Assembly (NCBI GenBank): GCA_024409055.1
Contig: JAKSUL010000005.1
Span: 6,636-70,635 of the forward strand
DNA length: 64,000 nucleotides
Source of the DNA: Bacilli bacterium
GTDB lineage: Bacteria; Bacillota_I; Bacilli_A; RFN20; CAG-826
Direction: 5' to 3'
The translations under genes were made by a program, and so were the position numbers. Under the pieces are notes generated by a model. That model saw nothing but the letters and a program-made list of their open reading frames with translations. It was not told the origin of the DNA and did no database searches. Shown here piece after piece: positions 3,977-42,067 of this stretch (position 1 is the stretch's first letter; the number at the start of each line of letters is the position of its first letter).

Positions 3977-3985
3977 ACATAAAAA

Positions 3986-4407: not shown

Positions 4408-4408
4408 A

Positions 4409-11499: not shown

Positions 11500-12313
11500 C
11501 GTAAAGGATTTCAAAGCGTCTTCTCTCCCAGGGAGTAGAAAAGAACAGTTGAGAGATGTCCTTTCCGTCAATTTTCCAATCATTCTCCTCAACGGACTAA
11601 TATCTATTGTCGGTTTTCTCCCAACATACCTTTTGTTCATCTTAGAGAACAATGTCCTTCGTGACATCTCTATTACCGATGACTTCGGCAACTATTTCAT
11701 ATGGTCATCAATATTTGGAGGATTCCGAGTAATAACGATTTGCTTCTTATTTTTGGTTATTGCCGGTTTAGCAAATATATATCGCGTTCTTTGCTATGAA
11801 GAAGGCCTTTTCTATCGCCAAGACTTCTTCGCGGGCATAAAAGAAAACTGGAAGCACTACCTTCTCACAGGATTCATCATTGGGGTGTTTCTTTTGGCTC
11901 TAGAAGCCCTTCAGACGTTGTCCGGGTCTAAGTCTGGGTCTTTAGCGTTGGAAATCGCCTATTACGGTTATTTCGGCATATTTATCGTATTTATCCTTAC
12001 CATAGCCCAAGTCCTTTTGTTCATGAGCAATATATACGCGTGCAGCTATGGAAGACATATCGCCAACTCCTCGATAATAAGCCTCAAATATTTGTTCCCC
12101 TTAGTTCTCTTCTCTATATTCCTTGGGGTCTCCTATCTGATTCTTTGGATTCCTTTATTCATCATTCAGGTGATCGCCCTCGCTTTGTATTTGTTGTTCC
12201 TTTTCCCAATATTCCTTTTGATGTTTCATCTTTATTGTCTATACATCGTGGACGTCAACATCAACAAAGATTATCCAGAGTTATTAAATAAAGGATTATA
12301 TAAAGGCGAATAA
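11483..12313 (+). CDS. Polytopic membrane protein, YesL/DUF624-like
   Basis: About six hydrophobic helices. The block EEGLFYRQDFFAGIKENWKHYLLTGFIIG resembles the DUF624 signature often found beside sugar ABC systems. GAGG lies 9 nt before ATG 11483. Confidence 0.55.
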   Translation: MKRKYSVKDFKASSLPGSRKEQLRDVLSVNFPIILLNGLISIVGFLPTYLLFILENNVLRDISITDDFGNYFIWSSIFGGFRVITICFLFLVIAGLANIYRVLCYEEGLFYRQDFFAGIKENWKHYLLTGFIIGVFLLALEALQTLSGSKSGSLALEIAYYGYFGIFIVFILTIAQVLLFMSNIYACSYGRHIANSSIISLKYLFPLVLFSIFLGVSYLILWIPLFIIQVIALALYLLFLFPIFLLMFHLYCLYIVDVNINKDYPELLNKGLYKGE

Positions 12314-12386: not shown

Positions 12387-13742
12387 TTAGTAGTTATTGA
12401 CGAGGGTAACGCCAGTCGGAGTGGTTGGAGTCTCCGGATAAGTGTCGTTATATCCACCACAGAAAGAAGTGATGCCAACAATCTTTGGAAGATCGGAGGT
12501 CCACTGCTTGAATACCTCGACTGTGACGTTTTGGAAGTTGACGTTGGTGGCTTTAGTCCTAGAACCGAAGATGTTGTTGTAGCCGATTCTAACTTTGATT
12601 GTGCAATCCTTGATGGTTGACTTCTCATCGATCATGTCTCCGACGAAGATGCCGTTTTTATTGCCGGCGACTGTCGTCGGAAGAGTGTCTCCGTAATGGA
12701 TAACGTTGACACCTTCGATTGTGGCTTTGAAGACCTGGGTTGCGATCATGCAGGCTTCGCCCATGGCTTGATGGACACGGGTAGAACTTCCGTTGGAGCA
12801 GGTGATATCGAAGTTTTTGACAACGCCACCCCTTCCGATGGATCCGAATAAACCAGTAGAAACGAAGGTGATATCGTCAAATACGTGGTCTTGGCCATCG
12901 AAGGTTCCGCGGAAGCCTTTGTCTCCATTCCATCCGCTGCTAACCGGTTTTCCGGCATAGCTCAAGTCGCTATCTCTTTCGTTGATGGTGCTACCGTTAA
13001 GGTTGACATCTCCAGTCATGACGAAATAGCCACCGATGTATTTTCCGTCGACAACAAATGGGTGAGTTTTTCCCTGCGCTGTCTTGCCATTTCCAGCTTC
13101 GTTGGTCCAGTGGACATAGCTGAATTGCTTTGCAGTCGCAATCTCAGCGGTAACGAACAAAGAAGGAACGGTGAATGTGTAGTTTTCTCCGCCGAGTGCC
13201 ATAGTAACATCGACGTTATTTTCACCGATGAACTGTCCATAGGCAGCGGCCGGGATAGCCAACTTTCCGCCGGCCATTGTGGTTCCGGTTAAAGCGGTCT
13301 CTCCAACCTTGGCGGACACAAATGTGCTGCCAGTCGGAAGAGTCGGAAGATTGATTTCGGCATTTTCGGTTTTAGCAACAAAGATGTTGTTGGTTTCGTC
13401 CCAAGAATACTGGACAACAGACTGTTTCTCCATCGTTCCAAGCGGAGCGATATAAGCCGGGTTTTCTGCATTCCAGCCGACAACTTTGCTGAAATCGGTG
13501 TTGGTCCAGCTTCCTTCAACGAAACTAGTGAATGTTTCGTGGCACTTGCAGCAAGACCAGAACTCATAGTGGCCAGACTCTTCGTTGGTCGGTCCTTTAG
13601 CGGCATAGTGATTGCCGATGTGGCTGCAAGGAGTATCGCCAGCAACAAACGGATTGGCGATAGCATTTCCAGCGGCAGCGGCAACACCGACGGTGCCAAC
13701 CATCGATGCGGACAAAGCGACGAGTAATACTTTCTTTTTCAT
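12387..13742 (-). CDS. Secreted protein, paralog of 14906..16660: one Cys-rich module plus a beta-helix-like FDGxGH tail
   Basis: Signal peptide MKKKVLLVALSASMVGTVGVAAAAG; AGAGGA RBS. C-terminal ~250 aa align closely with the 584-aa lipoprotein (GFRGTFDGQDHVFDDITFVSTGLFGSIGRGGVVKNFDITC...). Confidence 0.8.
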   Translation of the reverse strand: MKKKVLLVALSASMVGTVGVAAAAGNAIANPFVAGDTPCSHIGNHYAAKGPTNEESGHYEFWSCCKCHETFTSFVEGSWTNTDFSKVVGWNAENPAYIAPLGTMEKQSVVQYSWDETNNIFVAKTENAEINLPTLPTGSTFVSAKVGETALTGTTMAGGKLAIPAAAYGQFIGENNVDVTMALGGENYTFTVPSLFVTAEIATAKQFSYVHWTNEAGNGKTAQGKTHPFVVDGKYIGGYFVMTGDVNLNGSTINERDSDLSYAGKPVSSGWNGDKGFRGTFDGQDHVFDDITFVSTGLFGSIGRGGVVKNFDITCSNGSSTRVHQAMGEACMIATQVFKATIEGVNVIHYGDTLPTTVAGNKNGIFVGDMIDEKSTIKDCTIKVRIGYNNIFGSRTKATNVNFQNVTVEVFKQWTSDLPKIVGITSFCGGYNDTYPETPTTPTGVTLVNNY

Positions 13743-13850: not shown

Positions 13851-13882
13851 AGAAAAAACGCCTCTTTCGGGGCGTTTTTGGG
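13851..13882 (-). terminator. Rho-independent terminator ending the long minus-strand operon
   Basis: AAAAACGCC (13854-13862) pairs with GGCGTTTTT (13871-13879). On the minus strand the stem is followed by a T-rich tract. Confidence 0.85.
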
Positions 13883-13902: not shown

Positions 13903-14880
13903 TTATTTTTTGAGGCAGAGATTGATCAAATCGTCGAGTTTTGCGGTGGCAAGACATTCAACCGTGTCAGCCGCTCCATAATAGATCTTCACTTCTCCAT
14001 CATCTTCCAGGATCATGCCACCCGGGAAGATAACATCGTTGCGGTATCCTTCTCTCTCGTAAGGAGCCTTTGGCGCAAGAATCGGCAATTTGCTGAAGCC
14101 AATGACCTTGCTCGGATCCTTTAGGTCAAGAAGCATTATTCCGGCGTAGTAGATCTTTTGCCATTTCTCTTCCCAACCGTTCTTTCCCCTGTTCGGGTCA
14201 AGTTCGACGGCGTGGAATGTGGTTAACCAGCCTTTTTCCGTCTTAATTGGCGGCGCGGCCGGTCCGATTTTGTTGTTGCAATAAGGGACTTTTTCGGCGC
14301 CAAGAACAAGTTTGGAATTGCCCCAGTATTTAAGATCAGCGGAATCACTCATCCAGATGTCGAAATAGTCTCCGCCGCGAGAATATACAGGGAACGGCCT
14401 CTCTAAACGCACGTACATGCCATTTATCTTTTCAGGGAATAAAACCATGTTGCGGTTATCGGGGACGCTCATGGAGATCACTTCGACTCTTTCAAAGTCT
14501 CCGATGACCTTTCCGATGCCGCCTCTAACGCCGTGCTTCGTATCAACGGCAAAGCAAATGTAAATCTCGTCGTCGATGACGGTAAGGCGAGGATCGTACA
14601 TCCTTTCGATCTCATCATCATGCATCTCAAAAGCCGGTTTATCGTTGGGGATCCAATGAATTCCGTCTTTGCTTCTGGCAACGCCTAAGTTAACTCCGCC
14701 GATGCCGACTTTGTTGATGGGTGGGTAACCCAAATAGTCGTTGCGGAAAACCATGTAATACGTGCCATGGTATTTGATAACGCCGGCATTAAAAATCAAG
14801 GCAGCGTTATATGAGATGTCTTTTTTGGATAGGATAGGATTTTCTTCCGCTCTAACCAAAAGAGGAATTTCTTCGAACAT
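13903..14880 (-). CDS. GH130 family beta-mannoside phosphorylase/hydrolase
   Basis: FNAGVIKYHGTYYMVFRND, YDPRLT, PIKTEKGWLTTFH and KIYYGAADTVECLA blocks are typical of GH130. The subfamily cannot be assigned by eye. Confidence 0.9.
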   Translation of the reverse strand: MFEEIPLLVRAEENPILSKKDISYNAALIFNAGVIKYHGTYYMVFRNDYLGYPPINKVGIGGVNLGVARSKDGIHWIPNDKPAFEMHDDEIERMYDPRLTVIDDEIYICFAVDTKHGVRGGIGKVIGDFERVEVISMSVPDNRNMVLFPEKINGMYVRLERPFPVYSRGGDYFDIWMSDSADLKYWGNSKLVLGAEKVPYCNNKIGPAAPPIKTEKGWLTTFHAVELDPNRGKNGWEEKWQKIYYAGIMLLDLKDPSKVIGFSKLPILAPKAPYEREGYRNDVIFPGGMILEDDGEVKIYYGAADTVECLATAKLDDLINLCLKK

Positions 14881-14905
14881 AATAGAATCTCTTAAAACAA
14901 TTTGA

Positions 14906-16660
14906 TTAAGCCGGCATTACAACCGTGATTCCGGCAGGAGCTTCAGTGCAGGTTGGATAAGAATCGCTATTTCCACCATAGAAATTTGTAATTCCGCGGA
15001 CCGGATCAGCGCTGTATTGCTTCCAAACTTCGACGGTAACGTTTTCGAATGTGACAGAGCCGGTCGTCCTGGTTCCGAAGATGTTATGGTAGCCAGACCT
15101 GACTTTGATATAGCAATTTTTCACAACGGAACGAGCGTCGATCATATCGCCGACGAAGATGGCGTTATGGGTATTGGCGCTGACTCCGTCATCTGCTCCA
15201 GTATGGACAACGTTGACGTTTTCGATGGTAGCGGTATAAACCTGGGCGGCGATCATGCAAGCTTCGGTCATTGCCTGGTGGACTCTAGTTGAATACCCGT
15301 TGGTGCAAGTGATGTCGAAGTTTTTGATGAGGCCTCCTTTACCGATGGCACCGAACAAGCCATAAGCGACGAAAGTGATATCGTCGAATTTGTGGCCTTG
15401 GCCATCGAAGGTACCGCGGAAACCTTTGAGGCTGTTCCATCCACCACTCTTTGGCTGGCCGGCATAGCCTAAATCGCTATCCCTTTCATTGATGGTTCCA
15501 CCGCCGGCGTTGATGTCATCGGTCATCACGAAGTAACCGTCGATGTATTTATTTCCGTTTTCTTCTTTGACGAACGGGTGAGCGCCACTAGATTTGGTAT
15601 TTCCAGCATCGGCTTCGGAAGTCCAATGGATGAAGCTGAACTGTTTGGCAGTAGCGACTTCGGCAGTAATGAATTTGCCTTCGGCCATAACCTTGACGTC
15701 GCAGCCTTCAACAGTGAATGTCGCCTCAACGTTTTTGGTTTCGCCTAAATAGTTTTCAATAGCGGCAGCACCAACGGTGACGACTCCGTCAGCGAAAATG
15801 GCACCAGCAATTGAATCCGTTCCGATCTTAAGTCCTTTTAGGGTCGCGCCAGTCGGGAGACCCGGATAGGATAAACCGGCGTTTTCGTTAGCGACGTATT
15901 TGCCGGCATCTCCATCGAAAACATACTCAGCAACAGATTGAGTGCCTTCAACTTTGGCGTTGATGTCTTCGTGACCAGTGCCTTTATGTCCGCAGGCGCA
16001 TTTCCATTCATACTTTTCGCCAGCCCCATCCAAGATGTATTTATGATCGTGGGTTTGGGTTAAGTGTTCACCGCAAACGGAGCAAGTGGTCCAGTGAGTA
16101 GTGTCATCGCTTTCGTAGTGTCCGTCTGAGACGTGCTCGCCAAGAGGGATTATCAATGAATCGTAACTCACTTCTTTCTTTGTCGAATCGAAGTATTTGC
16201 CGCAGTCTGCGCAGTGATAATGACCAAGCATGCCGGTGTGTTCACAAGTTGCTTCAATCTCTTCAACCCAAGATCCGTATGTATGATCTTTGGTGACCGA
16301 CGGATCGGTGATTTGGTGCTTGGCGCTAGCGTCGCTAAACATCTTTTCGCAAACATCGCAGCTCCAGTATTCAATATTGCCCGGAACTTCGCACTGTGGG
16401 ATAACGGCGTCGTGATGAGTGAGGGCGTGAGCTCCAATCGGAGTAACCAAATCCTCAAGGGTCGTCTCCACTTTTTCTTCAGTGAAAATGAGTTCGCATC
16501 CGCTGCAGGAATAGTAACCCTGCATACCGGTTGTTAGGCAGTTGCTAGCAACCGCGTCATGATGAACGTAGTTGTGTTGGTGTCCTCCGCAGGAAGCAAG
16601 AGTTCCTGAGGCAAGAACAAGAAGAGCAGGAATCGGCAAGACTTTGGATAGTTTGTTCAT
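14906..16660 (-). CDS. Surface lipoprotein: four Cys-rich modules plus a beta-helix-like FDGxGH tail
   Basis: Lipobox LASCGG; AGGAGG RBS. Modules such as HHDAVASNCLTTGMQGYYSCSGCELIF and HHDAVIPQCEVPGNIEYWSCDVCEKMF. Tail GFRGTFDGQGHKFDDITFVAYGLFGAIGKGGLIKNFDITC. Confidence 0.85.
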   Translation of the reverse strand: MNKLSKVLPIPALLVLASGTLASCGGHQHNYVHHDAVASNCLTTGMQGYYSCSGCELIFTEEKVETTLEDLVTPIGAHALTHHDAVIPQCEVPGNIEYWSCDVCEKMFSDASAKHQITDPSVTKDHTYGSWVEEIEATCEHTGMLGHYHCADCGKYFDSTKKEVSYDSLIIPLGEHVSDGHYESDDTTHWTTCSVCGEHLTQTHDHKYILDGAGEKYEWKCACGHKGTGHEDINAKVEGTQSVAEYVFDGDAGKYVANENAGLSYPGLPTGATLKGLKIGTDSIAGAIFADGVVTVGAAAIENYLGETKNVEATFTVEGCDVKVMAEGKFITAEVATAKQFSFIHWTSEADAGNTKSSGAHPFVKEENGNKYIDGYFVMTDDINAGGGTINERDSDLGYAGQPKSGGWNSLKGFRGTFDGQGHKFDDITFVAYGLFGAIGKGGLIKNFDITCTNGYSTRVHQAMTEACMIAAQVYTATIENVNVVHTGADDGVSANTHNAIFVGDMIDARSVVKNCYIKVRSGYHNIFGTRTTGSVTFENVTVEVWKQYSADPVRGITNFYGGNSDSYPTCTEAPAGITVVMPA

Positions 16661-16687
16661 ATATCCTCCTTTTTATATTTATAAAAA

Positions 16688-18508
16688 TTAGTCGACGTAA
16701 TTAATCTTCACGCCTGAAGCGGAAGTATGCGGAGCGGTGTCTTTCTCCTCGTAGTATAGCGAAGCGACCTCTTTGGCGTTGATGACAACGTTATTGGAAG
16801 AAGCGACGTTAAATCCGTTATTGCCAAAAACATTGGCGATGCGAAGGCCGGCGGCGTTGATTGTGATGTTTGTTAAGGTCGACTTAGCGACGGTTCTAGA
16901 AGCAACAATGCCGATATCGGTGCTTTGATAATTCATTGTTGCGCCCATATTTATCGTAACGTCCTTAATGGTTCCGCCTAATACGTGAACCGCGATTATG
17001 GAACAATACGAATTATCGAAGACAACGGCATTGTCAAAAGTGATGTTTTTTACAACGCCACCAACTCCAACAGATCCAAGCAAGCAGTTTTGAGAGCCCT
17101 TGAAGGAAATGTTTTTAATTGAGTGCCCCATACCGTCCAACATTCCGATAAAGCCATATTTGTCGTTATAAGAATTGTTGCCAGGCTGAGAGAAAGTGTG
17201 AGCCGAGCAGTCGATGTCGTTGGCCAAGACATAATAGCCGGCAATATTGACGGATTTGGTGATATCAGCCCACCCCGGCTCGCGGCGATAACGAATCGTT
17301 TCCAAATCATCCGCGTTCCTCAAGAGGAGAGAATATGGGTTAACCGTCGTGTCGTAACGACAAGTCGAGGTATAAATCGATAACGGGCTTTCAGACTTAG
17401 CCTCGCTAGCCTTCAAAAGGGCTTTTGAACCAGTCAAAGAAATATATTTGCTACCACGATCATATGAGGCGGCCACATTTTGGCCATCCCACAAAATCGA
17501 TTCAACGTCCCCACTTAAAGTGGCCGGGACATAAATATTGTTATAGCTACGGTCGAGTTCCATATCGAAGGTTCCGCTTAATTCTCTGACCGATAATCCG
17601 ACGTGAACATTAACTGTAGCGGTCGTCAAAACCCCGGCGTTGACGCTGGAAAGCTTAATTCCGCAATTACCAGTTTTTTGGGCCGTGATAAGACCTTCGC
17701 TAGTGACACTAGCCACGCTCGGATCCAAAGACTCGTAAGAAATCGTGGCCCCTTCGATCTTCGTGCCGTTTTTGTAAACTCCGGCATGCATTTGAACGGT
17801 TGAGTTTTGATCTTCCGCATCGAGGGTATCCATATCGATGTTGAATCCTTCTTCGACAAGGAAGACAGCGCCCTTAGCAACGATTTTCACATTGATCTCT
17901 TTGGCGACTTGCTTCCCATAAATCGAAGCTTTGACGTTGATCGCGGCTTCTCCGATATTTAAAGCGGAAATGGTGATGTTTTTATTTACGCTAACGTTAA
18001 CTCCGGCGGTAGTCGGATCGCTGGAAGTCGCGGAAATCTCGGCTTCGCGAGTAACGTCTTCGCCTTTATATAAAAGCTTTGGCTCGATGAGGAAAGATTC
18101 GTCATGGAGAATGGAGACTTCGCTTTCTCCAACTTCCAAAACCGGCATATTTCCCTTGTCGGAAACCGATGTCTTCAAAGTCCTTTTTTCGCCGCCAACA
18201 TTGACGACGATGTTACATTCCCCATCAGTTCCGTAGGAAGAAACCAAACCGGTTTCGTTAACATCGGCAATACTCGGATTGCTCGAAGTGAAGGTCACGG
18301 TCCCTTCGTAATTGGTTTTAACAACCAATTGGAAAGAATCGTATGTGTCCAAAACGATGTTATCGGCGTTGATGCTGACATCCCACATCGCAGAAGATAC
18401 CGAGGAGGTCGGGGCGTTATTACCGCAAGCAGTAAGCGAGGTAAGGGCTCCGCCTACTAAGAAAGTCGAAGCTAATGCTAGAAGCAATCTGTTCTTTTTG
18501 TTCTTCAT
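16688..18508 (-). CDS. Surface lipoprotein: three Big_2-type Ig-like domains plus a beta-helix-like tail
   Basis: Lipobox LTACGN; AGGAGG RBS. Big_2-like blocks VTFTSSNPSIADVNETGLV and ISYESLDPSVASVTSEGLITAQKTG. Tail GFIGMLDGMGHSIKNISFKG..LLGSVGVGGVVKNITF. Confidence 0.85.
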   Translation of the reverse strand: MKNKKNRLLLALASTFLVGGALTSLTACGNNAPTSSVSSAMWDVSINADNIVLDTYDSFQLVVKTNYEGTVTFTSSNPSIADVNETGLVSSYGTDGECNIVVNVGGEKRTLKTSVSDKGNMPVLEVGESEVSILHDESFLIEPKLLYKGEDVTREAEISATSSDPTTAGVNVSVNKNITISALNIGEAAINVKASIYGKQVAKEINVKIVAKGAVFLVEEGFNIDMDTLDAEDQNSTVQMHAGVYKNGTKIEGATISYESLDPSVASVTSEGLITAQKTGNCGIKLSSVNAGVLTTATVNVHVGLSVRELSGTFDMELDRSYNNIYVPATLSGDVESILWDGQNVAASYDRGSKYISLTGSKALLKASEAKSESPLSIYTSTCRYDTTVNPYSLLLRNADDLETIRYRREPGWADITKSVNIAGYYVLANDIDCSAHTFSQPGNNSYNDKYGFIGMLDGMGHSIKNISFKGSQNCLLGSVGVGGVVKNITFDNAVVFDNSYCSIIAVHVLGGTIKDVTINMGATMNYQSTDIGIVASRTVAKSTLTNITINAAGLRIANVFGNNGFNVASSNNVVINAKEVASLYYEEKDTAPHTSASGVKINYVD

Positions 18509-18517
18509 AACTCCTCC

Positions 18518-20470
18518 TTAATCGATTCCCCAAGATTTCCAAAGCGCGGTGATGCTGCCTTGTTCAAGATCTTGAGTGATTCCGAAATATTCGCAGTCTT
18601 TTTTGAACTCAAGACGGATGTTCCTAAGTTCAATATCGTTATATAAACTGCCGTGTAGCTTATAAAGGACATAGCGAGGGAAAAGCGACTCAAGATTGAT
18701 GTGATCGCAAAGAGTCTTGTAAAGGGATGGGTTACTGGCTTTGTATTTAGCGACTGCCTCGTAAGCGTTATCGATGGTTTTGAGCCAATCTTTAAGCAAT
18801 CCGCTTGGCCACCACTCAGTCTTTTCGATTAACTCATAGATTCCGCCGTTAAGCGTGCTCTCGGTCTCCTCGAGGTGAGTTTCCCATTGGGTCATTTGGT
18901 TGAAAAGTTTCATCATAATCGGGCTGGCTTCGCGGAAATAATTCTCAAAGAAGGTGTCACGCACCTCACCATATTTGACGCGAAGATCAAACTGAGCTTT
19001 GGAAGCTAAGTATTCCCTAAATCTAACAAAGGCGGTCGAAGCGGTGTTTTGACGAATGCCTTGGTTGTACATAAACGAAGCATTGGCATTTTTACAGAAT
19101 CTATAATTCTCAATGAGGTTCTCAAAAGAGTTATAGATGTACATATAGTTCTTAAAATTGCACTCATATAACCAAGTGCAGAGATGGTTGCAGATCTTTC
19201 CCCATTTGTTTACGAGGTTAGCGAGTTTAGCGTTATCCGGATGGTTGAATGACTTGGTGAACGCGGCGGCGATTGGGGCGACGATAACACCGACGTTTTC
19301 ATTTCCTTGGGTGTATTTAGACGGTTTTTCGCCTTCCGGAGCGGTCGGGGCGTCGATCGTGGCATTATAGGCGAAGAAATAGATGTGGAATCCAACACTG
19401 CCATCGCGACCAGGAATCTTTCCGGCCTTGATATCAGCCTGCAAACGATCGTCTAAATCGTTGACGAATCCCAAAATAGTCGAGGAGACAGAGCCGTATT
19501 TGGCAAGGAATCTATTGCATTCATCACAAGTACAGCAAGTTGGCGTGTCCTCCTGAGTAAAGGTGATGTTGTTCATGTTCGGATTGTCCGCAACAGCGAT
19601 TTTGAGTTTTTCATAAACCGTGTTGAGCATAGCTTCCCTTTCGGAATTATCGCCATGGGCCGTATAGCAGAGTTGCTGACTGGATCCGGCCGGGCCGCTA
19701 TACCAAAGAGGATGCTCGCCATAATAGGTGTCACTCGGCAAAACCTTCAAGCAGTTATGGACGCCAGCCCCACCGAAAGGAATGAAAAGGCTGCCTGAGG
19801 GGTTAAAGCCGGTTCCATAAATCAAATCAGTATTGGAAAGGCAGTTCGTGAAAAGACGATACTCAAAATCCGGACGCTCCGTGATGTCCATATCGGGAAG
19901 GGTGTCGCCCTTCTTTGTATAGATGACTGTGTCCTCGGAAATCATATCGTATCCGAGAACGGCGCGGAGGAAAGCCAAACCGGCTAAGTGGTAGCCTTCG
20001 GCCTTATTGGCGGCGATGAAGCAGTTGTTCTCTTTTGTTACGACGCGATATCCCGCAGACGCAAGGTTCAAGCCATCGAGTGAGAAGCCGGCTTCGGCAA
20101 ATTTATTCTCGCATCCAACGAGAATGTATTTATCGCCGCTGACTATTGTGCCGATCGACTCAACGGGAACACGTTCCAAATTGACTCCGGTAGCGCTAGA
20201 AATGCAGCCTTGAATATATCCGGCAGCTCTAGCGGCGGCTCCCTCAAGGGTCTCGCCGTAAACGATTTTGTATTCGCTATAGCCATTCTTGACGAAGGCA
20301 CGGACTTTGTTTTCGGTAATCTTTACATCGTGAAGAGTGTCAGAGGAAACCTTTTCGGTCGTAGGATCTTCAATGGCGTTTCCTTTTTTTGTCGGATCGC
20401 TAGAGCAAGCAGCTAAAGCAACAATCGAAGAAGCGGCGAAGATAAGTGATAGTAATTTTGACTTTTTCAT
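18518..20470 (-). CDS. Lipoprotein, DUF4838-like (glycoside-hydrolase-like) domain
   Basis: Lipobox LAACSS; AGGAGGG RBS. RPDFEYR and FTQEDTPTCCTCDECNRFLAKYGS...GFVNDL blocks match my recollection of DUF4838. The family call needs an HMM search. Confidence 0.6.
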   Translation of the reverse strand: MKKSKLLSLIFAASSIVALAACSSDPTKKGNAIEDPTTEKVSSDTLHDVKITENKVRAFVKNGYSEYKIVYGETLEGAAARAAGYIQGCISSATGVNLERVPVESIGTIVSGDKYILVGCENKFAEAGFSLDGLNLASAGYRVVTKENNCFIAANKAEGYHLAGLAFLRAVLGYDMISEDTVIYTKKGDTLPDMDITERPDFEYRLFTNCLSNTDLIYGTGFNPSGSLFIPFGGAGVHNCLKVLPSDTYYGEHPLWYSGPAGSSQQLCYTAHGDNSEREAMLNTVYEKLKIAVADNPNMNNITFTQEDTPTCCTCDECNRFLAKYGSVSSTILGFVNDLDDRLQADIKAGKIPGRDGSVGFHIYFFAYNATIDAPTAPEGEKPSKYTQGNENVGVIVAPIAAAFTKSFNHPDNAKLANLVNKWGKICNHLCTWLYECNFKNYMYIYNSFENLIENYRFCKNANASFMYNQGIRQNTASTAFVRFREYLASKAQFDLRVKYGEVRDTFFENYFREASPIMMKLFNQMTQWETHLEETESTLNGGIYELIEKTEWWPSGLLKDWLKTIDNAYEAVAKYKASNPSLYKTLCDHINLESLFPRYVLYKLHGSLYNDIELRNIRLEFKKDCEYFGITQDLEQGSITALWKSWGID

Positions 20471-20481
20471 AATTGCCCTCC

Positions 20482-23400
20482 TTATTTGCTGACATTGACC
20501 CTATAGACGACCTCTCCGATGTTGGAGGCTTCGTCAATGGCCATGATGTGGAATTCATAGACTCCGGCGTATTTAGCGACGATGGAGTTCTTTTCGTTTT
20601 CAAAATACAAGCGGATACCGTTCGGGTTAATGACGTATGCCCATACCGTCAATTTATCAGATGGGGTTACGTTATCTTTAACTTCGTACTCGGCTAGATA
20701 TAACGTGTCGCCGACCTTGGCGTTTTTCGCCGGTTCGGACTTCAAGGTGATTTCGGGCCTGGTCTCGTCGGAGACATTAACTAAGTAGGAGAAATCGGAA
20801 GCGTTATTCATTGCGTCGGCCGCTTTGTAATCGACAGTGTAATTGCCATATTGTTCTAGAACGAAATCATAAGAAGCAGAAGGCGAGACTTCGTTGAGCG
20901 TAACGCCGTTATTGTCGACAACATAGTTGCCTTTTGGATCCTTTACGGTCACGGTGAAGTACTTATTGTTTGGGAACAAGACGTCGAAGGCCGTGGCGGC
21001 GCAAACGTGATAAACGCTATTGATGGAATAGGATCCGCCATATGCACCCAAAAGGTGGATTTTCGGCCCAGTCGTATCTTTGACGGCGCTTGTGAATGTG
21101 AAGCCGTTTAAGGATTTGATAGTGAAGGATTCGCCGACCTTCATGTCGGTGTCTATGCGTAAATAGACCCTATCGCTATCTTTGAATTCGTTGACTAGAG
21201 CACCGCCGACATTGTTATCGTTGACCGAGAAAACGCCATCGACGAAAGCGAGCTTGAATTCATTGTTGCCATCCATCGTCAAAGCGGTCTTCACGGCGTT
21301 ATCGCCATAAGACAAGATCGCACCGCCATCGACTTTGGTAAGGGTAGCAGTCACGCTATTTTCGAAATCATAGTAATCAAGAAGGGTCATGCTGATGCTT
21401 TCACCTTGTCTCATGCTGAAGTTCTTCAAAACTATCGCAACTTCGGAGGAAGACTGAGGCGTGATGAAGGTAAATCCACTATTGGCACCCGTGATAGCAA
21501 CATCAAGGGAGGTGTTGGTCGTGGTCATAGCCATTCCTTTAGCGTCAAAGAACCTTTCTTCTTTAAGCTGATTGATGATAGTTCCGTACATCGAAACCTC
21601 TTCGTAGACGTTCATAAGATAAGAGGTTTTGGTGGAAAGCGAGTATCCGTCATAGACAAATTCAAAGGTAATGACTTCCTTTACGTCGTTTCCTTTCGGC
21701 GTGAATTTGGCACCGCCTTGGTATGTCGTAGTTCCGGTCGAATCTGTGACGAGGACGTCAGCAACGCCTGTCTTACCGGTGCGATAATCTTTTGCGATCA
21801 AAGTCGGAACTTCGACTTCGAGATCCGAGATGTGATATGCCGGTATAACAGCGTCTTCATAAAGAGAAGGATGCGTGCTCTCGGTGACGTTGACGTTGAA
21901 CTCTTTGGCAGAAGAAGTTCCAACGAAATCGGTGACCGTGTAGATGATTTTCCAAATACCAACGCGTTCAAAGACAAAGGAGTTATTGATGATTTCCTTT
22001 TCGCCTTCAATCTCGGCTTCGACGGTGACGAATGTGTCTCCGCTTCCACCTTGGATATTCGTCGGGGTTGGCAAAACGATCCTCGATCCAACTTCGATCG
22101 TGGAAGGAATGCCATCTACGTCAAAGGTGATTGGATCAACTTTATCTAAGCAAGTGATGTAAAGAGGGCGAATCGTTTCGTTTCCGAACACGTCTTTGGC
22201 GACATATTCGATGACATATGAGCCAGGATATTTGGTTTGGATAACGCCATTAACGATGCTGACGCGAGTCTTATTGGCTGAGTTGTAGTCATACCAAGCT
22301 TTAGCCGTGACTTCGCATTGTCCAGAATATATGTCATATCCATAAGCGGTTGGGATTGGGTAAGAATAACCTGCGACGGCTTTAGGGAGCTTCGTGATGT
22401 CCTGTTCGAATTCGACGAGCGGTCCTTCGGAATCGCGGAAAGTTGATTCCTCGGCCGCCATCAATTCGTTGGCGGTATACCCGTACACTTTGGAAATGGC
22501 GAAATTGGCCGATTCACCAGCGATACCTTCGGCGGTGACGGAAAGACGCACTTTGTTCGATTTGAATCCCGGCCATCCTTTGGCGAAATAAGCCGGATTA
22601 TCAAGGTCGATGACCTGAGTATCGTGGAAGAAAAGAGCTTGGTTAGTTTGGTCGTAGTGAACTTCGAAGGTGCTTTCTGGAGCGTCGGCACCAGTAGGAA
22701 TCACTTCTTGCCTGATGGTTCCTGTGGTCGGATCCAAGAAAGCATGGCCGCGGAAAGCGGCGAAAGAACAACCGGCAGAGGTTCCGAATTCATCGCCTTG
22801 GTGAAGGGATCCCATACCGCTATTGTCGTAGTAGTTCCAGCCAGACAAAGGCTGATCGTTACCGGCTGCTTTAGCCCAAGCGGTTCCGCCTTCTGAATAG
22901 TTTTGGAAGACGAAATCGAAATAAGTATTCGCGTCGCTGGCATCAGTAAAACGGAAATAAATCTTAGTGAAGTCGTTGGTGCCGCGTGAATCAGGGGTCA
23001 AGAAGCCGTCAATTAAGATGTCTTCTTTGGTGAGGCTAGAGATATCGATGAGTTTGGAGAACGTCAAAGTGTCTCCCTTGGCCAAACGGACAAGCATGGC
23101 CTCGGTGTCTCTTCCTTTATATGGCTGATACGTGACTTCCGAATCATCGGACCTCGCATATTTATGAATTCCGTAAGTTACCGTGGTCTTGTCGCTATGC
23201 ATGATAGACGGGTAGTCGACCTTGAACGTTTTTTCTAAGGTCTTGGTAACGCCGGACACCTCAGCAAAATATTGGATTGTGTACTCCCCGATTTCGTTAA
23301 GGGTCACTTCGCTATCAGAGGTCGCGTTTTTGCTAGGATAAACAAAAGAGTGGGTAGCCGTGACAACGTTCGATCCGTTGACGTACATGGCATTAGGAAT

Positions 23401-23565
23401 CGAGAAGTCGGTGTTGTAGCGGTAATAGTCTTCGACTTGAACATCGGTCCATCCGGACGATTGGGCCGCGTTGATGAGACCGTAAGCACTGGTTCCGGCA
23501 TACGCCAAAGCGCCAAGACACGTCAGTGCCAAGGCAATCGTAATAATCTTGTTTGATTTTTTCAT
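20482..23565 (-). CDS. Large (1027 aa) secreted/anchored surface protein with repeated Ig-like (DUF5011/HYR-type) modules and a lectin-like central region
   Basis: N-terminal signal/anchor MKKSNKIITIALALTCLGALAYAG; AAGGGG RBS before ATG 23565 (ORF-track start 23604). Module endings recur: DVFGNETIRPLYITC, AADAMNNASDFSYLVNVSDETRPEI, AIDEASNIGEVVYRVNVSK. Confidence 0.8.
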   Translation of the reverse strand: MKKSNKIITIALALTCLGALAYAGTSAYGLINAAQSSGWTDVQVEDYYRYNTDFSIPNAMYVNGSNVVTATHSFVYPSKNATSDSEVTLNEIGEYTIQYFAEVSGVTKTLEKTFKVDYPSIMHSDKTTVTYGIHKYARSDDSEVTYQPYKGRDTEAMLVRLAKGDTLTFSKLIDISSLTKEDILIDGFLTPDSRGTNDFTKIYFRFTDASDANTYFDFVFQNYSEGGTAWAKAAGNDQPLSGWNYYDNSGMGSLHQGDEFGTSAGCSFAAFRGHAFLDPTTGTIRQEVIPTGADAPESTFEVHYDQTNQALFFHDTQVIDLDNPAYFAKGWPGFKSNKVRLSVTAEGIAGESANFAISKVYGYTANELMAAEESTFRDSEGPLVEFEQDITKLPKAVAGYSYPIPTAYGYDIYSGQCEVTAKAWYDYNSANKTRVSIVNGVIQTKYPGSYVIEYVAKDVFGNETIRPLYITCLDKVDPITFDVDGIPSTIEVGSRIVLPTPTNIQGGSGDTFVTVEAEIEGEKEIINNSFVFERVGIWKIIYTVTDFVGTSSAKEFNVNVTESTHPSLYEDAVIPAYHISDLEVEVPTLIAKDYRTGKTGVADVLVTDSTGTTTYQGGAKFTPKGNDVKEVITFEFVYDGYSLSTKTSYLMNVYEEVSMYGTIINQLKEERFFDAKGMAMTTTNTSLDVAITGANSGFTFITPQSSSEVAIVLKNFSMRQGESISMTLLDYYDFENSVTATLTKVDGGAILSYGDNAVKTALTMDGNNEFKLAFVDGVFSVNDNNVGGALVNEFKDSDRVYLRIDTDMKVGESFTIKSLNGFTFTSAVKDTTGPKIHLLGAYGGSYSINSVYHVCAATAFDVLFPNNKYFTVTVKDPKGNYVVDNNGVTLNEVSPSASYDFVLEQYGNYTVDYKAADAMNNASDFSYLVNVSDETRPEITLKSEPAKNAKVGDTLYLAEYEVKDNVTPSDKLTVWAYVINPNGIRLYFENEKNSIVAKYAGVYEFHIMAIDEASNIGEVVYRVNVSK

Positions 23566-23569
23566 AAAA

Positions 23570-24481
23570 TCACCCCTTAATTCCGCCGATAGTAAGGTTA
23601 CCAAGCAGTTTTTTGTGGAAAGCTAAGAATAGAGCAAGGGCCGGGAGCAAAATGACGATAGTAGCACCGGCTTTTTGTGGGATCTTATCTAGACCAGGCT
23701 GAGATCCGAAGATGACCGCGTTGTACATTTCATACGCGAGCGTGGGATAGTCCTTTAAATAGATAAGAGGGGTCTGGTAGTCGTTCCAGAACACGATGAA
23801 CTCAATGATGAAAACGGTGAGGAAGACGTTCCTTGCGAGCGGAAGTCCGATGCGAAGAAGAATCTGAGTATTGGAAGCACCGTCGATTTTCGCGGCTTCT
23901 GAGAAGGAATCGGGCATCGATCTGAAGTGCTCATAGAAAACCAAGAAGTACATTCCCAAGAAGGAGAACTTCAAAACCCAAATGAAGAACAGGTTGTTAT
24001 ATAGTCCAAAGAAGTTGACGACCTTGAACTCAGAAGGCTGGTTTCCGACAACCGGGATGGCCATTACGATGATTACGAGGGTGTAAATAATCGCTGAGCT
24101 CTTGAAACGATACCTAGCGCAAGCGTAAGCGACTAAGCAAGGAACAAGGGTTTTAACGACGCCGCTAGTAAGTGAATACCACAAAGAGATTCCGAATAGT
24201 TCAACGAACGAATATTTATGAATCTTTCCGTTCCAACGGCCAAGAATCGAAAGCTTATCAGCCGAGAAAAGGTCGCCGATGTTGAAGTGGAATTCTTCCG
24301 GCCAAGAGAAGGCTTTGGCGAAGGTGAATATTCCTGGATCTTGGAAAGAAGTGAACAAAGAGAAAAGCAATAGCCCAACCAGCGAAACGCTATAGATCGC
24401 AAGGACAACAAGCAAAACTATGGCAAAAATCGATAGGCGTTCTTTTGGTAAGTGATTTGACCTTTTAAGTGCAGTTTTCAT
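23570..24481 (-). CDS. Carbohydrate ABC transporter permease (CUT1, second membrane subunit)
   Basis: EAA loop EAAKIDGASNTQILLRIGLPLA and six hydrophobic helices. GAGGA lies 6 nt before ATG 24481; the ORF-track TTG start at 24487 overlaps the upstream stop. Confidence 0.9.
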   Translation of the reverse strand: MKTALKRSNHLPKERLSIFAIVLLVVLAIYSVSLVGLLLFSLFTSFQDPGIFTFAKAFSWPEEFHFNIGDLFSADKLSILGRWNGKIHKYSFVELFGISLWYSLTSGVVKTLVPCLVAYACARYRFKSSAIIYTLVIIVMAIPVVGNQPSEFKVVNFFGLYNNLFFIWVLKFSFLGMYFLVFYEHFRSMPDSFSEAAKIDGASNTQILLRIGLPLARNVFLTVFIIEFIVFWNDYQTPLIYLKDYPTLAYEMYNAVIFGSQPGLDKIPQKAGATIVILLPALALFLAFHKKLLGNLTIGGIKG

Positions 24482-24483
24482 GA

Positions 24484-25464
24484 TCAATCCTCACTCGGAC
24501 CATATTTGGTCAATAAATGGCGAATCACCAAAGTAAGCGGAACAGCAATCATGGTCAATACCAAGCCAATCGCCGATAGCGGGAACAAAGCCGCAGACGG
24601 TGTCATTTGATTGGCTTTGTCATAGACGTTAGAGAAGAACCAGTAGCCAAACGTAGAAAGGCTCGTCGAGTCTATTGCCCTAGAGCCAAAGAAAGAGAAG
24701 ACGTTATATTGGCATACAAACAGACCGGCGATACCAGTGATCAAGAACACGGATAAGGTCGAGAAAGTCTGAGGCAAAACAATCGAGGTGAATTCTCTCC
24801 ATTGATTAGCGCCATCTACTTTGGCGGCTTCCAAAACTTCGGTAGAGATAGAAGCCATCTTATTGGAGAAAAGAAGGACCGTGGTTCCGAAGTTAAGCCA
24901 AATATAGAAGAACATGACGGTCATGTATTGAGTTTTTGTGTCGCTTAGGAATCCACCGCCTTCAATAGTGACGTTGAACGTATTCTGCATAAAGGCCGCG
25001 AAAGAGGAATCGAACCAAATGAAGATACCGCACAAAACGACGGTTGAAATGATGGAAGGCAAGAAGAGCATGACCCTAAAGAACGAGGATCCGAAGAACT
25101 TCTTGAATATGTAATAGGAGAATAAAAGGGCAAGCGGGATGGATATCGCGTTGCAGATGAACCAGGATTTAACGGAGTTCCACATCAAGGTCCAGAAAGG
25201 AAGCGTAATAATATCGCTAGGATTTCCAGTCCAGTTTGGAGACTCTCCGCCGATCCAGCGGAAAACGTTAACAAAGTTATCGAAAGTGAATATCTCCGAC
25301 CTCACCCCACCTTCAATCGTGACTTTCTCAAAAGCCAAAACGAAGGAGTTGAAGTTAACGACCACGTAAAAGATGGCGAACTGAAGAAGAGGTAAAGCAA
25401 GGAGGGCGATGTAAAAACCAAGATCCTTGAGACTTTGTTTTTTTCGATTCGTCATTTTTGCCAT
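24484..25464 (-). CDS. Carbohydrate ABC transporter permease (CUT1, first membrane subunit)
   Basis: EAA loop EAAKVDGANQWREFTSIVLPQ; polytopic. Confidence 0.9.
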   Translation of the reverse strand: MAKMTNRKKQSLKDLGFYIALLALPLLQFAIFYVVVNFNSFVLAFEKVTIEGGVRSEIFTFDNFVNVFRWIGGESPNWTGNPSDIITLPFWTLMWNSVKSWFICNAISIPLALLFSYYIFKKFFGSSFFRVMLFLPSIISTVVLCGIFIWFDSSFAAFMQNTFNVTIEGGGFLSDTKTQYMTVMFFYIWLNFGTTVLLFSNKMASISTEVLEAAKVDGANQWREFTSIVLPQTFSTLSVFLITGIAGLFVCQYNVFSFFGSRAIDSTSLSTFGYWFFSNVYDKANQMTPSAALFPLSAIGLVLTMIAVPLTLVIRHLLTKYGPSED

Positions 25465-25482
25465 AAAACTTTTTCGCAGATA

Positions 25483-27171
25483 TTAGAGAAGTCCTTTGAA
25501 GTAATTCCAGGCAGTAACCGGGGAGTTGCTGTGGAAGGCGTTGATCGGGAAGGCGTAAGTCGTGGTACCGACCTTTGCGCGATAGGCGTTCGGCTCAGTG
25601 AATGAGTCTGGGCTCGCGGCATAGGTCGCAGCATGGCTATACGGGAAGATGATGTCGGTGTTTTCCGATTGGACGTAATTGTGCAAAGAACGGCCAAACG
25701 GAGAAAGCTCATTGAGTTCTTCCGGCGTCATCGTGTACTTGAGAGCCTTCATTGTGTTGGTGGATTTGGTATAGGCGACAAGCTCGTTATCGGAGTTCAC
25801 GAATTGGATGAACTTTTTGGCGGCCTGAAGTTTTCCATTCTTTAATTTGCTAGAAGCGAAGCACAAGGTGGAAAGGTTATCGGAGATCGTGTTTTTGATA
25901 TGGGCGTCAACATAGGACTGATTCGGGCGAGGGAGGTTCATCCAGCCGAAGTTACGTTTATTGATGCCATATTCAGAGCCGAAGCGGGCTTCCATATCGG
26001 TGAAGCAGCTCTTGCCTTCGTTCATAGCCCAAACACCTTCCACTAACATGGCGATGTCTTTGGCTCCGCTGGCTTTGGATCCCCAAATGAAATCCTGCTG
26101 GGCAGCTGTGTGGGTGTATCCGTTGTTATAACCGGATCCATTGGTCCAGTCGGAAGAATTTTTGACGATGGTCGAGAAGAAATCGAGGGCGTAGTATTTG
26201 CCGACTTGCCTCTGGACGTTGGCACGTCCGGCGACGCTATCTTCGATAACGACGCTCTCCAAAGAGGAAACTGGGACAACGCCGTCATCCGGTTCAGTAG
26301 CTGAGGTCTTGACCAAGTCGTCATCGGTTCCGTTGAGAGCATAGTTAAGCATCATCTTCTCGGATCCTTCGGCTTGTGTAACGAGGGCGTTAATGAAGGC
26401 GTTGGTGTAGTTGTAGTTACGATATCCGTTCCAAACAAGCGGGATAGCCTGTTTCTGAACGATCTGGCGGCAAAGCATGAAGAACTCTTGGTAGGTAGCC
26501 GGGAGTCCATCGTCTTCCGTATCGAAATATCCGTCAGGTCCAGTGCTCTTTTTCAAGACGGTTGGATCTGGATAGTTGCCGATGAAGTTCAAGCTTTCGT
26601 CAGCCGGATACGGCTCGCCGTTTCTATCGATGAAATAGAGTCCGTACTTGTCGAACAATTCAATGTTATAAATAAGGCCAGATCCGCCCATGTAGTGCGG
26701 CAAGGCGTAATAATGTTTGGAGCCACCTTCCGTAACACCGAGGAAATCTTCTTGGCTCTTGCTTAACTTGGAGGCGATTGTCTTGTTGTCGAACTCGCTG
26801 GTTTCGGTAACGATGTCCGAAATATCGGCGATGGCGTTGACGGAACGGAGCTCATCGTAGAAAGAGTGCTCGTGGAAGTAGACATCAAAATCTCCAAGGG
26901 CAATTTCTTGAGAGGAATAGCTCGTTTTCAATGGGTTGATTTGAATTTCAACGCCAGTCTTTCCTTCCTCAAAGGAGGTTTCGGCAAACTTGGCTTCGAA
27001 ACGTTCCTTGACGCCGTTAAGCCAATCGCTTCCGAATCCACCGTTATAATTAAAGACGGAGATTTGGGTTTTGGTGGAATCTCCACCTCCACCGCATCCG
27101 GTTAAAGAAGTAGCCAAAACCGGCAAAGCGGCAAGGGATAAAATCAAATGCTTGTTCAAAGTCTTTTTCAT
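25483..27171 (-). CDS. Extracellular solute-binding lipoprotein of a sugar ABC importer (large ~560-aa class)
   Basis: Lipobox LTGCGGGG; AAGGAGG RBS. It is the first gene upstream of two permeases. Confidence 0.85.
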   Translation of the reverse strand: MKKTLNKHLILSLAALPVLATSLTGCGGGGDSTKTQISVFNYNGGFGSDWLNGVKERFEAKFAETSFEEGKTGVEIQINPLKTSYSSQEIALGDFDVYFHEHSFYDELRSVNAIADISDIVTETSEFDNKTIASKLSKSQEDFLGVTEGGSKHYYALPHYMGGSGLIYNIELFDKYGLYFIDRNGEPYPADESLNFIGNYPDPTVLKKSTGPDGYFDTEDDGLPATYQEFFMLCRQIVQKQAIPLVWNGYRNYNYTNAFINALVTQAEGSEKMMLNYALNGTDDDLVKTSATEPDDGVVPVSSLESVVIEDSVAGRANVQRQVGKYYALDFFSTIVKNSSDWTNGSGYNNGYTHTAAQQDFIWGSKASGAKDIAMLVEGVWAMNEGKSCFTDMEARFGSEYGINKRNFGWMNLPRPNQSYVDAHIKNTISDNLSTLCFASSKLKNGKLQAAKKFIQFVNSDNELVAYTKSTNTMKALKYTMTPEELNELSPFGRSLHNYVQSENTDIIFPYSHAATYAASPDSFTEPNAYRAKVGTTTYAFPINAFHSNSPVTAWNYFKGLL

Positions 27172-27215
27172 TGAAAGCCTCCTTTTTGAGAAGAATATGT
27201 ATTTGCTATGTGGAT

Positions 27216-27221
27216 ATTATA
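27216..27221 (-). promoter_or_regulatory. Candidate -10 box (TATAAT on the minus strand) for the SBP operon
   Basis: Minus strand reads aaaagtTATAATatcc, about 45 nt upstream of ATG 27171, which has its own AAGGAGG. No convincing -35. Confidence 0.35.
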
Positions 27222-27308
27222 ACTTTTAGTTAACTCCTTAAAAAAGGTGGGCAGTATTGCACTTTTTGACAAAAGAAAGGATTTTTTATCTATCCGAGAG
27301 TCAAAGAT

Positions 27309-27323
27309 TTGGAAGCGATTACA
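27309..27323. promoter_or_regulatory. cre / LacI-family-type operator candidate tTGGAAGCGATTACA
   Basis: Fits all 15 positions of WTGNAANCGNWNNCW. Lies between the GH127 terminator and the SBP operon promoter region. Confidence 0.5.
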
Positions 27324-29175: not shown

Positions 29176-29310
29176 CGTTGATCGACTAATTTTAAGAATT
29201 GGCCAACGTCTTTAGCAATGGCATATGAGCCAAAAATGGTGCCATTTTTTTACTTTGTTCACCTTCCGACTGCTTCGCATTTGCTAATGAACAAAATGTT
29301 TTCTTTCGTT

Positions 29311-29322
29311 TACAATAGCGTC
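29311..29322 (+). promoter_or_regulatory. Leaderless-type promoter (-10 TACAAT 6 nt from ATG 29323)
   Basis: TACAAT at 29311-29316, spacer agcgtc, then ATG. TGAACA lies 17 nt upstream as a weak -35. No Shine-Dalgarno. Confidence 0.45.
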
Positions 29323-36650: not shown

Positions 36651-36695
36651 GGTTTCATCACCGAAAGGTGAACAAATATTAGAAAGGAACAAAAC

Positions 36696-42062: not shown

Positions 42063-42067
42063 GATTC

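Follow-up and report, generated by a model that had tools for sequence, protein, structure and literature searches.

The 64,000-nt stretch of contig JAKSUL010000005.1 analysed here (the window, to which all positions refer) contains an operon of eight minus-strand open reading frames (ORFs) between positions 27171 and 13903. Its products are, in order, a solute-binding protein (SBP) and two permeases of a carbohydrate ATP-binding cassette (ABC) importer, a 1027-aa protein rich in immunoglobulin (Ig)-like domains, a 650-aa lipoprotein with a DUF4838 domain, two further lipoproteins of 606 and 584 aa, and a glycoside hydrolase (GH) family 130 enzyme. The operon is probably one copy of a conserved Gram-positive glycan-utilisation cassette, resembling a polysaccharide utilisation locus (PUL), of uncultured gut Clostridia and Bacilli. 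An initial annotation of this DNA had proposed a monoderm analogue of a PUL, which is supported here as a PUL-like unit. It had also counted nine genes, but the ORF list gives eight, and so does the annotation's own list of genes.

The same gene order recurs in other genomes. GTDB species-representative genomes were scanned with a DUF4838 alignment, and 305 relatives were obtained from a single peptide pattern. Synteny was counted by local BLAST in the best 80 of the 305 loci, which come from about 65 metagenome-assembled genomes (MAGs) of gut, rumen or caecal origin and are designated by L-numbers. The labels of these MAGs read Clostridia, Bacilli, Christensenellaceae, Ca. Scatosoma, Pumilibacteraceae and "Mollicutes". 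The upstream sequence is long enough to judge the order in 59 loci, and in 57 of these an SBP orthologue heads the cassette and is followed by two permeases, a protein of ~1000 aa and the DUF4838 protein. In 75 of the 80 loci the immediate upstream neighbour of the DUF4838 gene is the ~1000-aa gene, and a Big_2 or head protein (described below) follows DUF4838 in 51 of 68. The block is also present on contigs that carry homologues of the 1027-aa gene. Several MAGs carry two to four diverged copies. Order and strand are repeated in dozens of genomes at 25–60% protein identity, and the arrangement is therefore not a product of chance. A literature search on DUF4838, GH163 and BT1035 returned no description of the cassette.

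The second piece of evidence is the DUF4838 domain itself. The match of the 650-aa lipoprotein scores 138.1 bits against a cut-off of 26.6 and covers profile positions 17–322 of 325. DUF4838 is the catalytic TIM barrel, distantly GH20-like, of the CAZy families GH163 and GH185, both of which are β-N-acetylglucosaminidase families (PMC10570127). According to the initial annotation, the surface proteins contained no recognised hydrolase and GH130 was the only enzyme with a clear catalytic signature. The first statement fails because of this match and the catalytic nature of the domain in GH163 and GH185. The second overlooks DUF4838, which is another such enzyme. The four surface proteins had been called uncharacterised, a description that holds for three of them and not for the 650-aa protein.

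Table 1. Features of the operon and its surroundings in the window
Feature	Position	Strand	Remarks
Promoter/leader region	27172..27321	-	between upstream terminator and SBP ATG; Shine-Dalgarno AAGGAGG 27184-27178
SBP, 562-aa lipoprotein, carbohydrate ABC importer	25483..27171	-	SBP_bac_1 (Pfam) E 1.3e-10; lipobox LTGC
ABC permease 1	24484..25464	-	BPD_transp_1 E 5e-10; six or seven hydrophobic segments
ABC permease 2	23570..24487	-	BPD_transp_1 E 7e-14
1027-aa surface protein	20482..23565	-	ATG start; alternative TTG start gives 1040 aa
650-aa lipoprotein, DUF4838 catalytic domain	18518..20470	-	PF16126 E 4.9e-40; lipobox LAAC
606-aa lipoprotein, Big_2 Ig stalk and ~200-aa C-terminal head	16688..18508	-	Big_2 E 9e-10
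584-aa lipoprotein, four Cys/His repeats, Ig-like domain and head	14906..16660	-	no Pfam match
GH130, 325 aa	13903..14880	-	PF04041 E 8e-41; no signal peptide
Intrinsic terminator ending the operon	13854..13879	-	9-bp stem and T run
451-aa secreted paralogue of the 584-aa protein	12387..13742	-	separately transcribed; own Shine-Dalgarno after the terminator
Four-gene module: ABC ATPase and three small membrane proteins	9717..12313	+	convergent with the operon
GH127-like cysteine glycosidase, cytoplasmic	27358..29175	-	PF07944 E 3e-37; PF20736 E 4e-11
AraC-family regulator	29218..30165	+	HTH_18, HTH_AraC, AraC_binding; divergent from the GH127-like gene
GH20/GH20C-type β-hexosaminidase, cytoplasmic	30218..31825	+	Glyco_H_20C_C E 9e-38; Glyco_hydro_20 E 4e-16

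The genes around the core are variable. They encode GH36, GH38, GH2, GH78, GH109, GH63-like, BNR, GH127-like, GH130 and GH20C-like proteins, AraC regulators, ADP-ribosylglycohydrolase-like proteins, and GFO/IDH/MocA and xylose-isomerase-like TIM proteins. In the closest orthologous locus, L001, the DUF4838 protein is 50% and the SBP 52% identical to those of the window. This locus also carries nagA and nagB, indicating a cargo that contains N-acetylglucosamine (GlcNAc).

Three side observations concern these related loci. First, a ~512-aa ADP-ribosylglycohydrolase-domain protein (E 6e-39), an unusual partner for a carbohydrate locus, stands beside the cassette in 13 loci within the range L005–L084 and on the same strand in 11 (for example L070, 13822–15357). 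Second, GFO/IDH/MocA and xylose-isomerase-like TIM (AP_endonuc_2) genes adjoin the cassettes of L001 (425–6227), L003 (3103–6112), L010 and L033, a set that resembles oxidative (3-keto) glycoside-cleavage pathways. Third, some cassette MAGs are labelled Acidiphilium, Staphylococcaceae, Bacteroidales/Bacteroidaceae, Paludibacteraceae or Parasutterella (L015, L016, L022, L025, L027, L029, L035, L048, L049, L056, L057, L059 and L066). These labels are probably taxonomic mislabels or reflect mixed bins.

The surface proteins

DUF4838 is the only Pfam domain of the 650-aa protein, which lacks an F5/8 type C module. The lipobox follows a hydrophobic N-terminus and predicts a surface location, and the cysteine at this position is kept in homologues. 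Two relatives have been characterised. The founder of GH163, BT1035, is a surface endo-β-N-acetylglucosaminidase that frees N-acetyllactosamine (LacNAc) units from complex N-glycans, and the founder of GH185, Sp_0475, is a 6-sulfo-GlcNAcase whose substrate-assisted mechanism involves Q174, H227, D309 and Y436 (PMC10570127). By family, the 650-aa protein would be a retaining, substrate-assisted β-N-acetylhexosaminidase, and it is the predicted surface enzyme of this activity in the system. Among 16 DUF4838 homologues, D201, N239, D308, Y435, C268, C313, C315 and C318 are invariant and H238 is nearly so. A PDB sequence search matched no DUF4838 structure.

A C-x-C-x2-C cluster, which comprises three of the four invariant cysteines, lies five residues past the putative catalytic D308. 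The four cysteines look like a structural metal site beside the active site. The cluster is not mentioned in the GH185 paper (PMC10570127).

The 1027-aa protein starts with a hydrophobic anchor or signal that has no canonical lipobox. Its AlphaFold2 model (predicted local distance difference test score, pLDDT, of 78) is built wholly of β strands and combines some six Ig-like domains with two larger β-sandwiches (~150–360 and ~650–820). Foldseek with the full-length model retrieved only Ig-repeat adhesins and S-layer proteins. Pfam likewise recognised only Ig-like domains (Bact_surface_Ig-like) in this protein and eight relatives, and found no fused catalytic domain in N-extended relatives. We propose that the protein is a glycan-binding or scaffold partner of DUF4838. 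The ~1000-aa family is large. An exhaustive hidden Markov model (HMM) search yielded 2818 representatives at E<=1e-30, with more than 150 full-length matches below 1e-204, and a view of the family as rare, based on a word-indexed search with 10 relatives, was rejected on this ground.

The 606- and 584-aa lipoproteins share a ~200-aa C-terminal head but differ in their stalk. In the 606-aa protein the stalk is of Big_2 type. The 584-aa protein is composed of a Cys/His stalk (residues ~27–230), an Ig-like domain (235–335) and the head (336–584). Its stalk has C-x3-G-x6-C-x2-C repeats at positions 41, 90 and 139, with a period of 49, and a fourth variant repeat. The AlphaFold2 model of this protein is confident over residues 78–175. 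In phmmer, the repeats match residues 850–927 of the Thomasclavelia ramosa IgA protease structure 9qa6 (E 5e-4). These residues correspond to CTD2, described as a "metal-associated periscope domain", a rod bridged by zinc that holds the enzyme off the cell (PMC12415215). The N-terminal repeats of the 584-aa protein are thus predicted to form a rod stalk of the zinc type. In view of the common head and the two kinds of stalk, both lipoproteins can be read as an anchor, a stalk (Big_2 or zinc rod) and a head. The Cys module was the only part of the four surface proteins that matched in single-sequence and profile searches of the PDB, and NCBIfam gave no match to any of them.

The head is common to the 606-, 584- and 451-aa proteins of the window and to cassette orthologues, and relatives contain one to four copies per protein. 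It is marked by the motifs GYYxL-NDI, GFxGxFDGxGHxI and GLFGxIxxGxIKN. PF05342 (Peptidase_M26_N) is matched by four of 12 head copies, with a best E of 4.9e-10, and by none of the window copies significantly. The module resembles Peptidase_M26_N/GLUG in sequence, and its fold is probably a β-helix. Foldseek with the 584-aa model gave no match at E<=1e-3.

The 451-aa protein is encoded just beyond the end of the operon. It is 56% identical to the 584-aa protein over 331 aa, corresponding to the C-terminal two-thirds of the latter. It consists of a signal peptide without a lipobox, one degenerate Cys repeat, the Ig-like domain and the head module, and may be a version of the head protein that is released.

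Right-handed β-helices are a common scaffold of polysaccharide hydrolases and lyases. The M26_N-like heads, and possibly the β-sandwiches of the 1027-aa protein, could accordingly belong to new families of glycoside hydrolases or lyases and be responsible for the main extracellular depolymerisation, leaving only trimming to DUF4838. We consider this unlikely, if worth attention. One of the 12 head copies weakly matches Pect-lyase_RHGA_epim (2e-4) and Beta_helix (1e-3), which keeps a catalytic role for the heads under consideration. No structural match assigns them another role, and a stalk–head protein accompanies DUF4838 in most loci, at the frequency given above. In addition, D46, D73, K102 and N103 are invariant within the module. 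These residues, however, lie in F-D-G-x-G-H and I-K-N turns, which are typical of structural β-helix starts. The module is repeated two to four times within single proteins, and its homology is to Peptidase_M26_N, a non-catalytic region. Moreover, no member of these families, N-extended ones included, contains a catalytic Pfam domain, and the cassette already possesses a bona fide GH domain in DUF4838.

The stalk shared with an IgA protease, the kinship of the head with the N-terminal part of streptococcal IgA1 proteases and the Ig-rich, adhesin-like folds raise another explanation, namely that the surface proteins serve mainly as adhesins or host-interaction factors directed at host glycoproteins such as IgA or mucin, a role also assumed for other proteins with M26_N or periscope parts, with an incidental or regulatory link to the importer. 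This explanation is improbable. The surface proteins contain neither a peptidase Pfam domain nor an HExxH motif. Their synteny with the importer, the GH domain and variable cytoplasmic exo-glycosidases is strict over at least 57 loci, and the closest of the related loci carries nagA and nagB.

The transcription unit and the importer

The eight genes are tightly packed. From SBP to GH130, the junctions measure 18, ~2 (or a 4-nt overlap), 4, 11, 9, 27 and 25 nt. The second permease likely starts with the ATG at 24481, which is preceded by GAGGA. Shine-Dalgarno sequences of AAGGAGG type stand ahead of the SBP, DUF4838, Big_2 and 584-aa genes, and in all four genes besides that of the SBP have a similar sequence in front. 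A TATAAT-like box is located upstream of the SBP gene at ~27221–27216. The region is bounded on the upstream side by a hairpin and T run (27347–27322) that terminates the GH127-like gene, and on the downstream side by the terminator listed in Table 1. Terminator-like matches within the operon are weak and occur at about the frequency of shuffled sequence (28 versus 20.2 +/- 5.0 expected). Rfam detected no riboswitch or leader element over 9000–33500.

As the ORFs, junctions and terminators confirm, the initial annotation was right in its coordinates, in gaps of at most 27 nt, in its domain labels, which Pfam also bears out, and in the AAGGAGG ahead of SBP and the terminator at the operon end. 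Its ~8.7 kb of surface-protein coding sequence agrees with the 8.6 kb to which the four surface genes sum. Its picture of a single, terminator-bounded unit linking an ABC importer, surface proteins and a cytoplasmic GH130 is likewise supported. That the genes are merely adjacent, by chance or without co-transcription, and form no functional unit is very hard to credit: a weak hairpin at the end of the Big_2 gene (16714–16694) would favour it, but the short junctions with their Shine-Dalgarno sequences, the restriction of strong terminators to the two ends and the recurrence of order and strand in diverged genomes all speak against it.

An imperfect 28-nt direct repeat is also present in the SBP promoter region (27182–27209 and 27262–27289). 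Its two copies are 71% identical and 80 nt apart, and could be operator sites of AraC type or a chance similarity.

The predicted locations of the products agree with a division between surface and cytoplasm. Lipoboxes (LTGC, LAAC, LTAC and LASC) are found across the SBP and the 650-, 606- and 584-aa proteins. The GH130, GH127-like and GH20C-like proteins have no signal peptide.

The SBP gives weak NCBIfam matches to carbohydrate and NgcE-type SBPs. The operon itself contains no ATPase gene. A candidate is found in the convergent four-gene module, whose first gene (9717–10442) encodes a 241-aa ATPase of UgpC/MalK type without a regulatory domain. The ATPase matches UgpC of NCBIfam with 222 bits, as well as GlcV and MalK. 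An assignment as an exporter ATPase was rejected, as these best matches are nucleotide-binding domains of importers. The three small membrane proteins of the module (158, 198 and 281 aa) have 2, 1 and ~6 predicted transmembrane segments and belong to no Pfam or NCBIfam family. In L027, the same four genes come right after the cassette and share its strand (13926–16587), and the module is found in 16–17 of the 80 loci. Since the operon lacks an ATPase gene, this synteny suggests that the module is probably the missing energiser of the importer.

Cytoplasmic enzymes, substrate and neighbouring loci

The best solved relatives of GH130 are all phosphorylases, including TM1225 (E 3e-48). The protein carries R46, Y95, the proton donor D96, R143, the phosphate-binding pair R161/H223, and D305. 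A Y/R pair marks β-1,4-mannoside phosphorylases (PMC7660257). The motifs of the window protein align with those of TM1225 (YDPR, NRN, RP, H and AAD), whereas β-1,2 enzymes in the PDB have EDPR and NKD, with E/K in place of the Y/R pair. The enzyme is therefore predicted to be a cytoplasmic β-1,4-mannoside phosphorylase. The substrate that had been guessed from GH130, a β-mannoside or an N-glycan-like glycan, fits the β-1,4 signature of Y95 and R143. As a defining part of the system, however, GH130 does not hold up. Among the 80 loci, only L017, L041 and L054 have it together with the core, and it is thus an accessory rather than a core component.

Two further cytoplasmic enzymes are encoded upstream. 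In alignments to the GH127 structures 6ex6 and 4qjy, the AGEMF, QETC and GCCAC motifs of the GH127-like protein are matched by AGEAF, ETC and CC. In HypBA1, the corresponding elements are a Glu acid/base and the Glu-x-Cys and Cys-Cys motifs that provide zinc ligands and nucleophile. The protein is highly diverged (E 3e-18 to the best structure). Its gene forms a transcription unit of its own in the window, whereas relatives have it inside the cassette locus, at about nine loci (L001–L003, L050, L060, L080, L081, L083 and, as a partial 108-aa match on the opposite strand, L064). Homologues of the GH20C-type enzyme are present at L005, L019 and L075. The AraC-family gene between the two enzyme genes is the candidate regulator of the locus, and AraC genes flank many cassette copies.

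From these components, a possible course of glycan utilisation can be described. Transcription would start just upstream of the SBP gene, probably under the control of the neighbouring AraC-type regulator. The DUF4838 lipoprotein, judging from its family, would cut a glycan or glycoconjugate containing N-acetylhexosamine into importable oligosaccharides. The 1027-aa protein and the two stalk–head lipoproteins may capture and present the substrate, as their non-catalytic folds, modular repetition and stalk homology suggest. The SBP and the two permeases would import the products, probably with energy from the MalK/UgpC-type ATPase, to judge from synteny. In the cytoplasm, GH130 would phosphorolyse β-1,4-mannosyl linkages, such as that of Man-β1,4-GlcNAc, to mannose 1-phosphate, and the GH20C-like and GH127-like enzymes would complete the breakdown.

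The substrate of this copy is most likely a glycan of N-glycan type or another glycan containing β-mannose and β-GlcNAc. An N-glycan-type substrate is favoured because the pairing of DUF4838 with a β-1,4 GH130 parallels that of BT1035 and BT1033. The finishing enzymes differ between copies of the cassette, and other copies presumably target other glycans.

Several points weigh against this picture. GH130 and the GH127-like enzyme together indicate no single known glycan. H238, D308 and Y435 of the DUF4838 protein parallel H227, D309 and Y436 of Sp_0475 by conservation and numbering, not by alignment. The published sequence network displays a large diversity within DUF4838 (PMC10570127). The head module has no PDB match by sequence or fold, and one of its copies shows the pectate-lyase-like and β-helix similarity described above. 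Finally, the ATPase is assigned by synteny alone, in about a fifth of the loci.

The window also contains glycan-related genes outside the cassette. Positions 33304–47122 on the plus strand hold a second glycan locus, which differs in type from the cassette. It encodes a GDPD phosphodiesterase (628 aa), an NAGPA-type phosphodiester glycosidase (487 aa), a Listeria-Bacteroides-repeat protein (738 aa), three proteins with a PT-repeat match at most, and then a second large SBP and two permeases. The gene content suggests that it attacks phosphodiester-linked glycans, such as teichoic-acid-like or phosphomannan-like polymers. Behind this second importer, at 47124–57164 on the plus strand, are genes for an SGNH/GxDLY esterase, a DUF4127 protein, GH31, a GFO/IDH/MocA oxidoreductase, GH36, and a MalK-like ATPase of 585 aa whose N-terminus is extended and whose ABC domain is split. 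At the other end of the window, genes for a 793-aa GH94-superfamily protein, starting with GTG, and for a 757-aa GH95 enzyme lie at 1595–6682 on the plus strand. GH95 homologues adjoin the cassette copies L012 and L015.

Comparison with known systems

The rules of glycan foraging in the gut come mostly from Bacteroidota, where SusC/D pairs allow PULs to be found automatically. We know of no comparable PUL marker for Firmicutes. The pair of a ~1000-aa Ig-rich protein and DUF4838, together with the importer, is kept at 300 or more places in species-representative genomes and could mark such loci in a set of uncultured lineages of Christensenellales-like bacteria, Clostridia and Bacilli. The cassette also points to surface DUF4838 enzymes as a large radiation that is still unexplored. 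Both relatives characterised so far have unusual specificities of biotechnological use, one removing LacNAc from N-glycan antennae and the other releasing 6-sulfo-GlcNAc. To our knowledge, M26_N-like heads and periscope repeats have so far been found only in IgA proteases, and the cassette places both in a context of carbohydrate uptake. The operon is more ordinary than the initial annotation held, in that a known GH domain is present, and more interesting, in that its core is fixed, multi-copy and widespread and includes three orphan surface families.

A more far-reaching interpretation is possible, and we put it forward tentatively. The fixed core may be the signature of an undescribed multi-copy glycan-utilisation system of uncultured gut Clostridia and Bacilli, functionally equivalent to the SusC/D 'utilisome', in which the ~1000-aa protein, the heads and a diversifying DUF4838 form an importer-coupled surface complex, each copy being adapted to another glycan of host or dietary origin. 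In a stronger version, the heads or the β-sandwiches would constitute new catalytic families.

A close functional parallel is the BT1035/BT1033 PUL of Bacteroides thetaiotaomicron. BT1033 is a GH130 characterised on Man-β1,4-GlcNAc, and its gene presumably lies near that of BT1035, as the locus tags are nearly adjacent. In both systems, a surface DUF4838 enzyme, an intracellular β-1,4 GH130 and β-hexosaminidases are encoded in one regulated locus, and oligosaccharides freed outside the cell would be finished inside. The differences are threefold. First, the locus in the window gives no SusC-like or SusD-like Pfam match. Its transporter is of the SBP and BPD_transp_1 type, an SBP-dependent ABC importer, and for lack of a SusC/D pair the locus is not a Bacteroidota PUL sensu stricto. 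Second, BT1035 ends in an F5/8 type C carbohydrate-binding module that is absent here, a feature of the founder and not necessarily of the family. Third, the ~1000-aa Ig-rich partner and the stalk–head lipoproteins have no counterpart in Bacteroides.

Gram-positive PULs (gpPULs) are known in Roseburia, Eubacterium, Bifidobacterium and Streptococcus. They are heterogeneous, and their surface proteins are bound through LPXTG motifs or cohesins. The window agrees with the gpPUL criterion, as an ABC importer, an AraC regulator, DUF4838, GH130, GH127-like and GH20C genes are found within 13.9–31.8 kb. Importer, regulator and glycoside hydrolases are co-localised in gpPULs as in the window, and the scheme of extracellular cleavage, import and cytoplasmic exo-enzymes or phosphorylases is the same. 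In contrast to gpPULs, the cassette has a fixed six-gene core, several copies per genome and interchangeable accessory enzymes, which brings it nearer to the logic of SusC/D systems, and its surface proteins are lipid-anchored.

Sp_0475 of GH185 shares the Pfam domain with the 650-aa protein and has His, Asp and Tyr at nearly the same numbers, the two sequences being unaligned. Sp_0475 and its cluster 3 are cytoplasmic and have no signal peptide, whereas the window protein is a lipoprotein, and sequence identity between DUF4838 clusters is low (PMC10570127). The missing F5/8 type C module and the lipoprotein signal argue against a simple identity of the 650-aa protein with the founder of GH163 or GH185.

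The IgA proteases parallel the predicted layout of the stalk–head lipoproteins, a rod-like stalk that holds a functional domain off the cell. The similarity is to CTD2, in the comparison with CTD2/CTD4 of the T. ramosa enzyme, for the Cys/His repeats, and to the N-terminal region of streptococcal M26 IgA1 proteases for the head. However, the window proteins have no peptidase domain and belong to a carbohydrate-uptake context. The position of the stalk also differs, being N-terminal behind a lipid anchor in the window and C-terminal before a wall anchor in the proteases.

Lastly, Bifidobacterium longum employs the GH121 enzyme HypBA2 to release a small oligosaccharide at the surface, an ABC transporter for import, and HypBA1, a GH127 enzyme, for cleavage in the cytoplasm. 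The window combines a putative surface enzyme, ABC uptake and a cytoplasmic GH127-type cysteine glycosidase in the same manner. Its surface enzyme, however, is DUF4838 rather than GH121, and its GH127-like protein is highly diverged.

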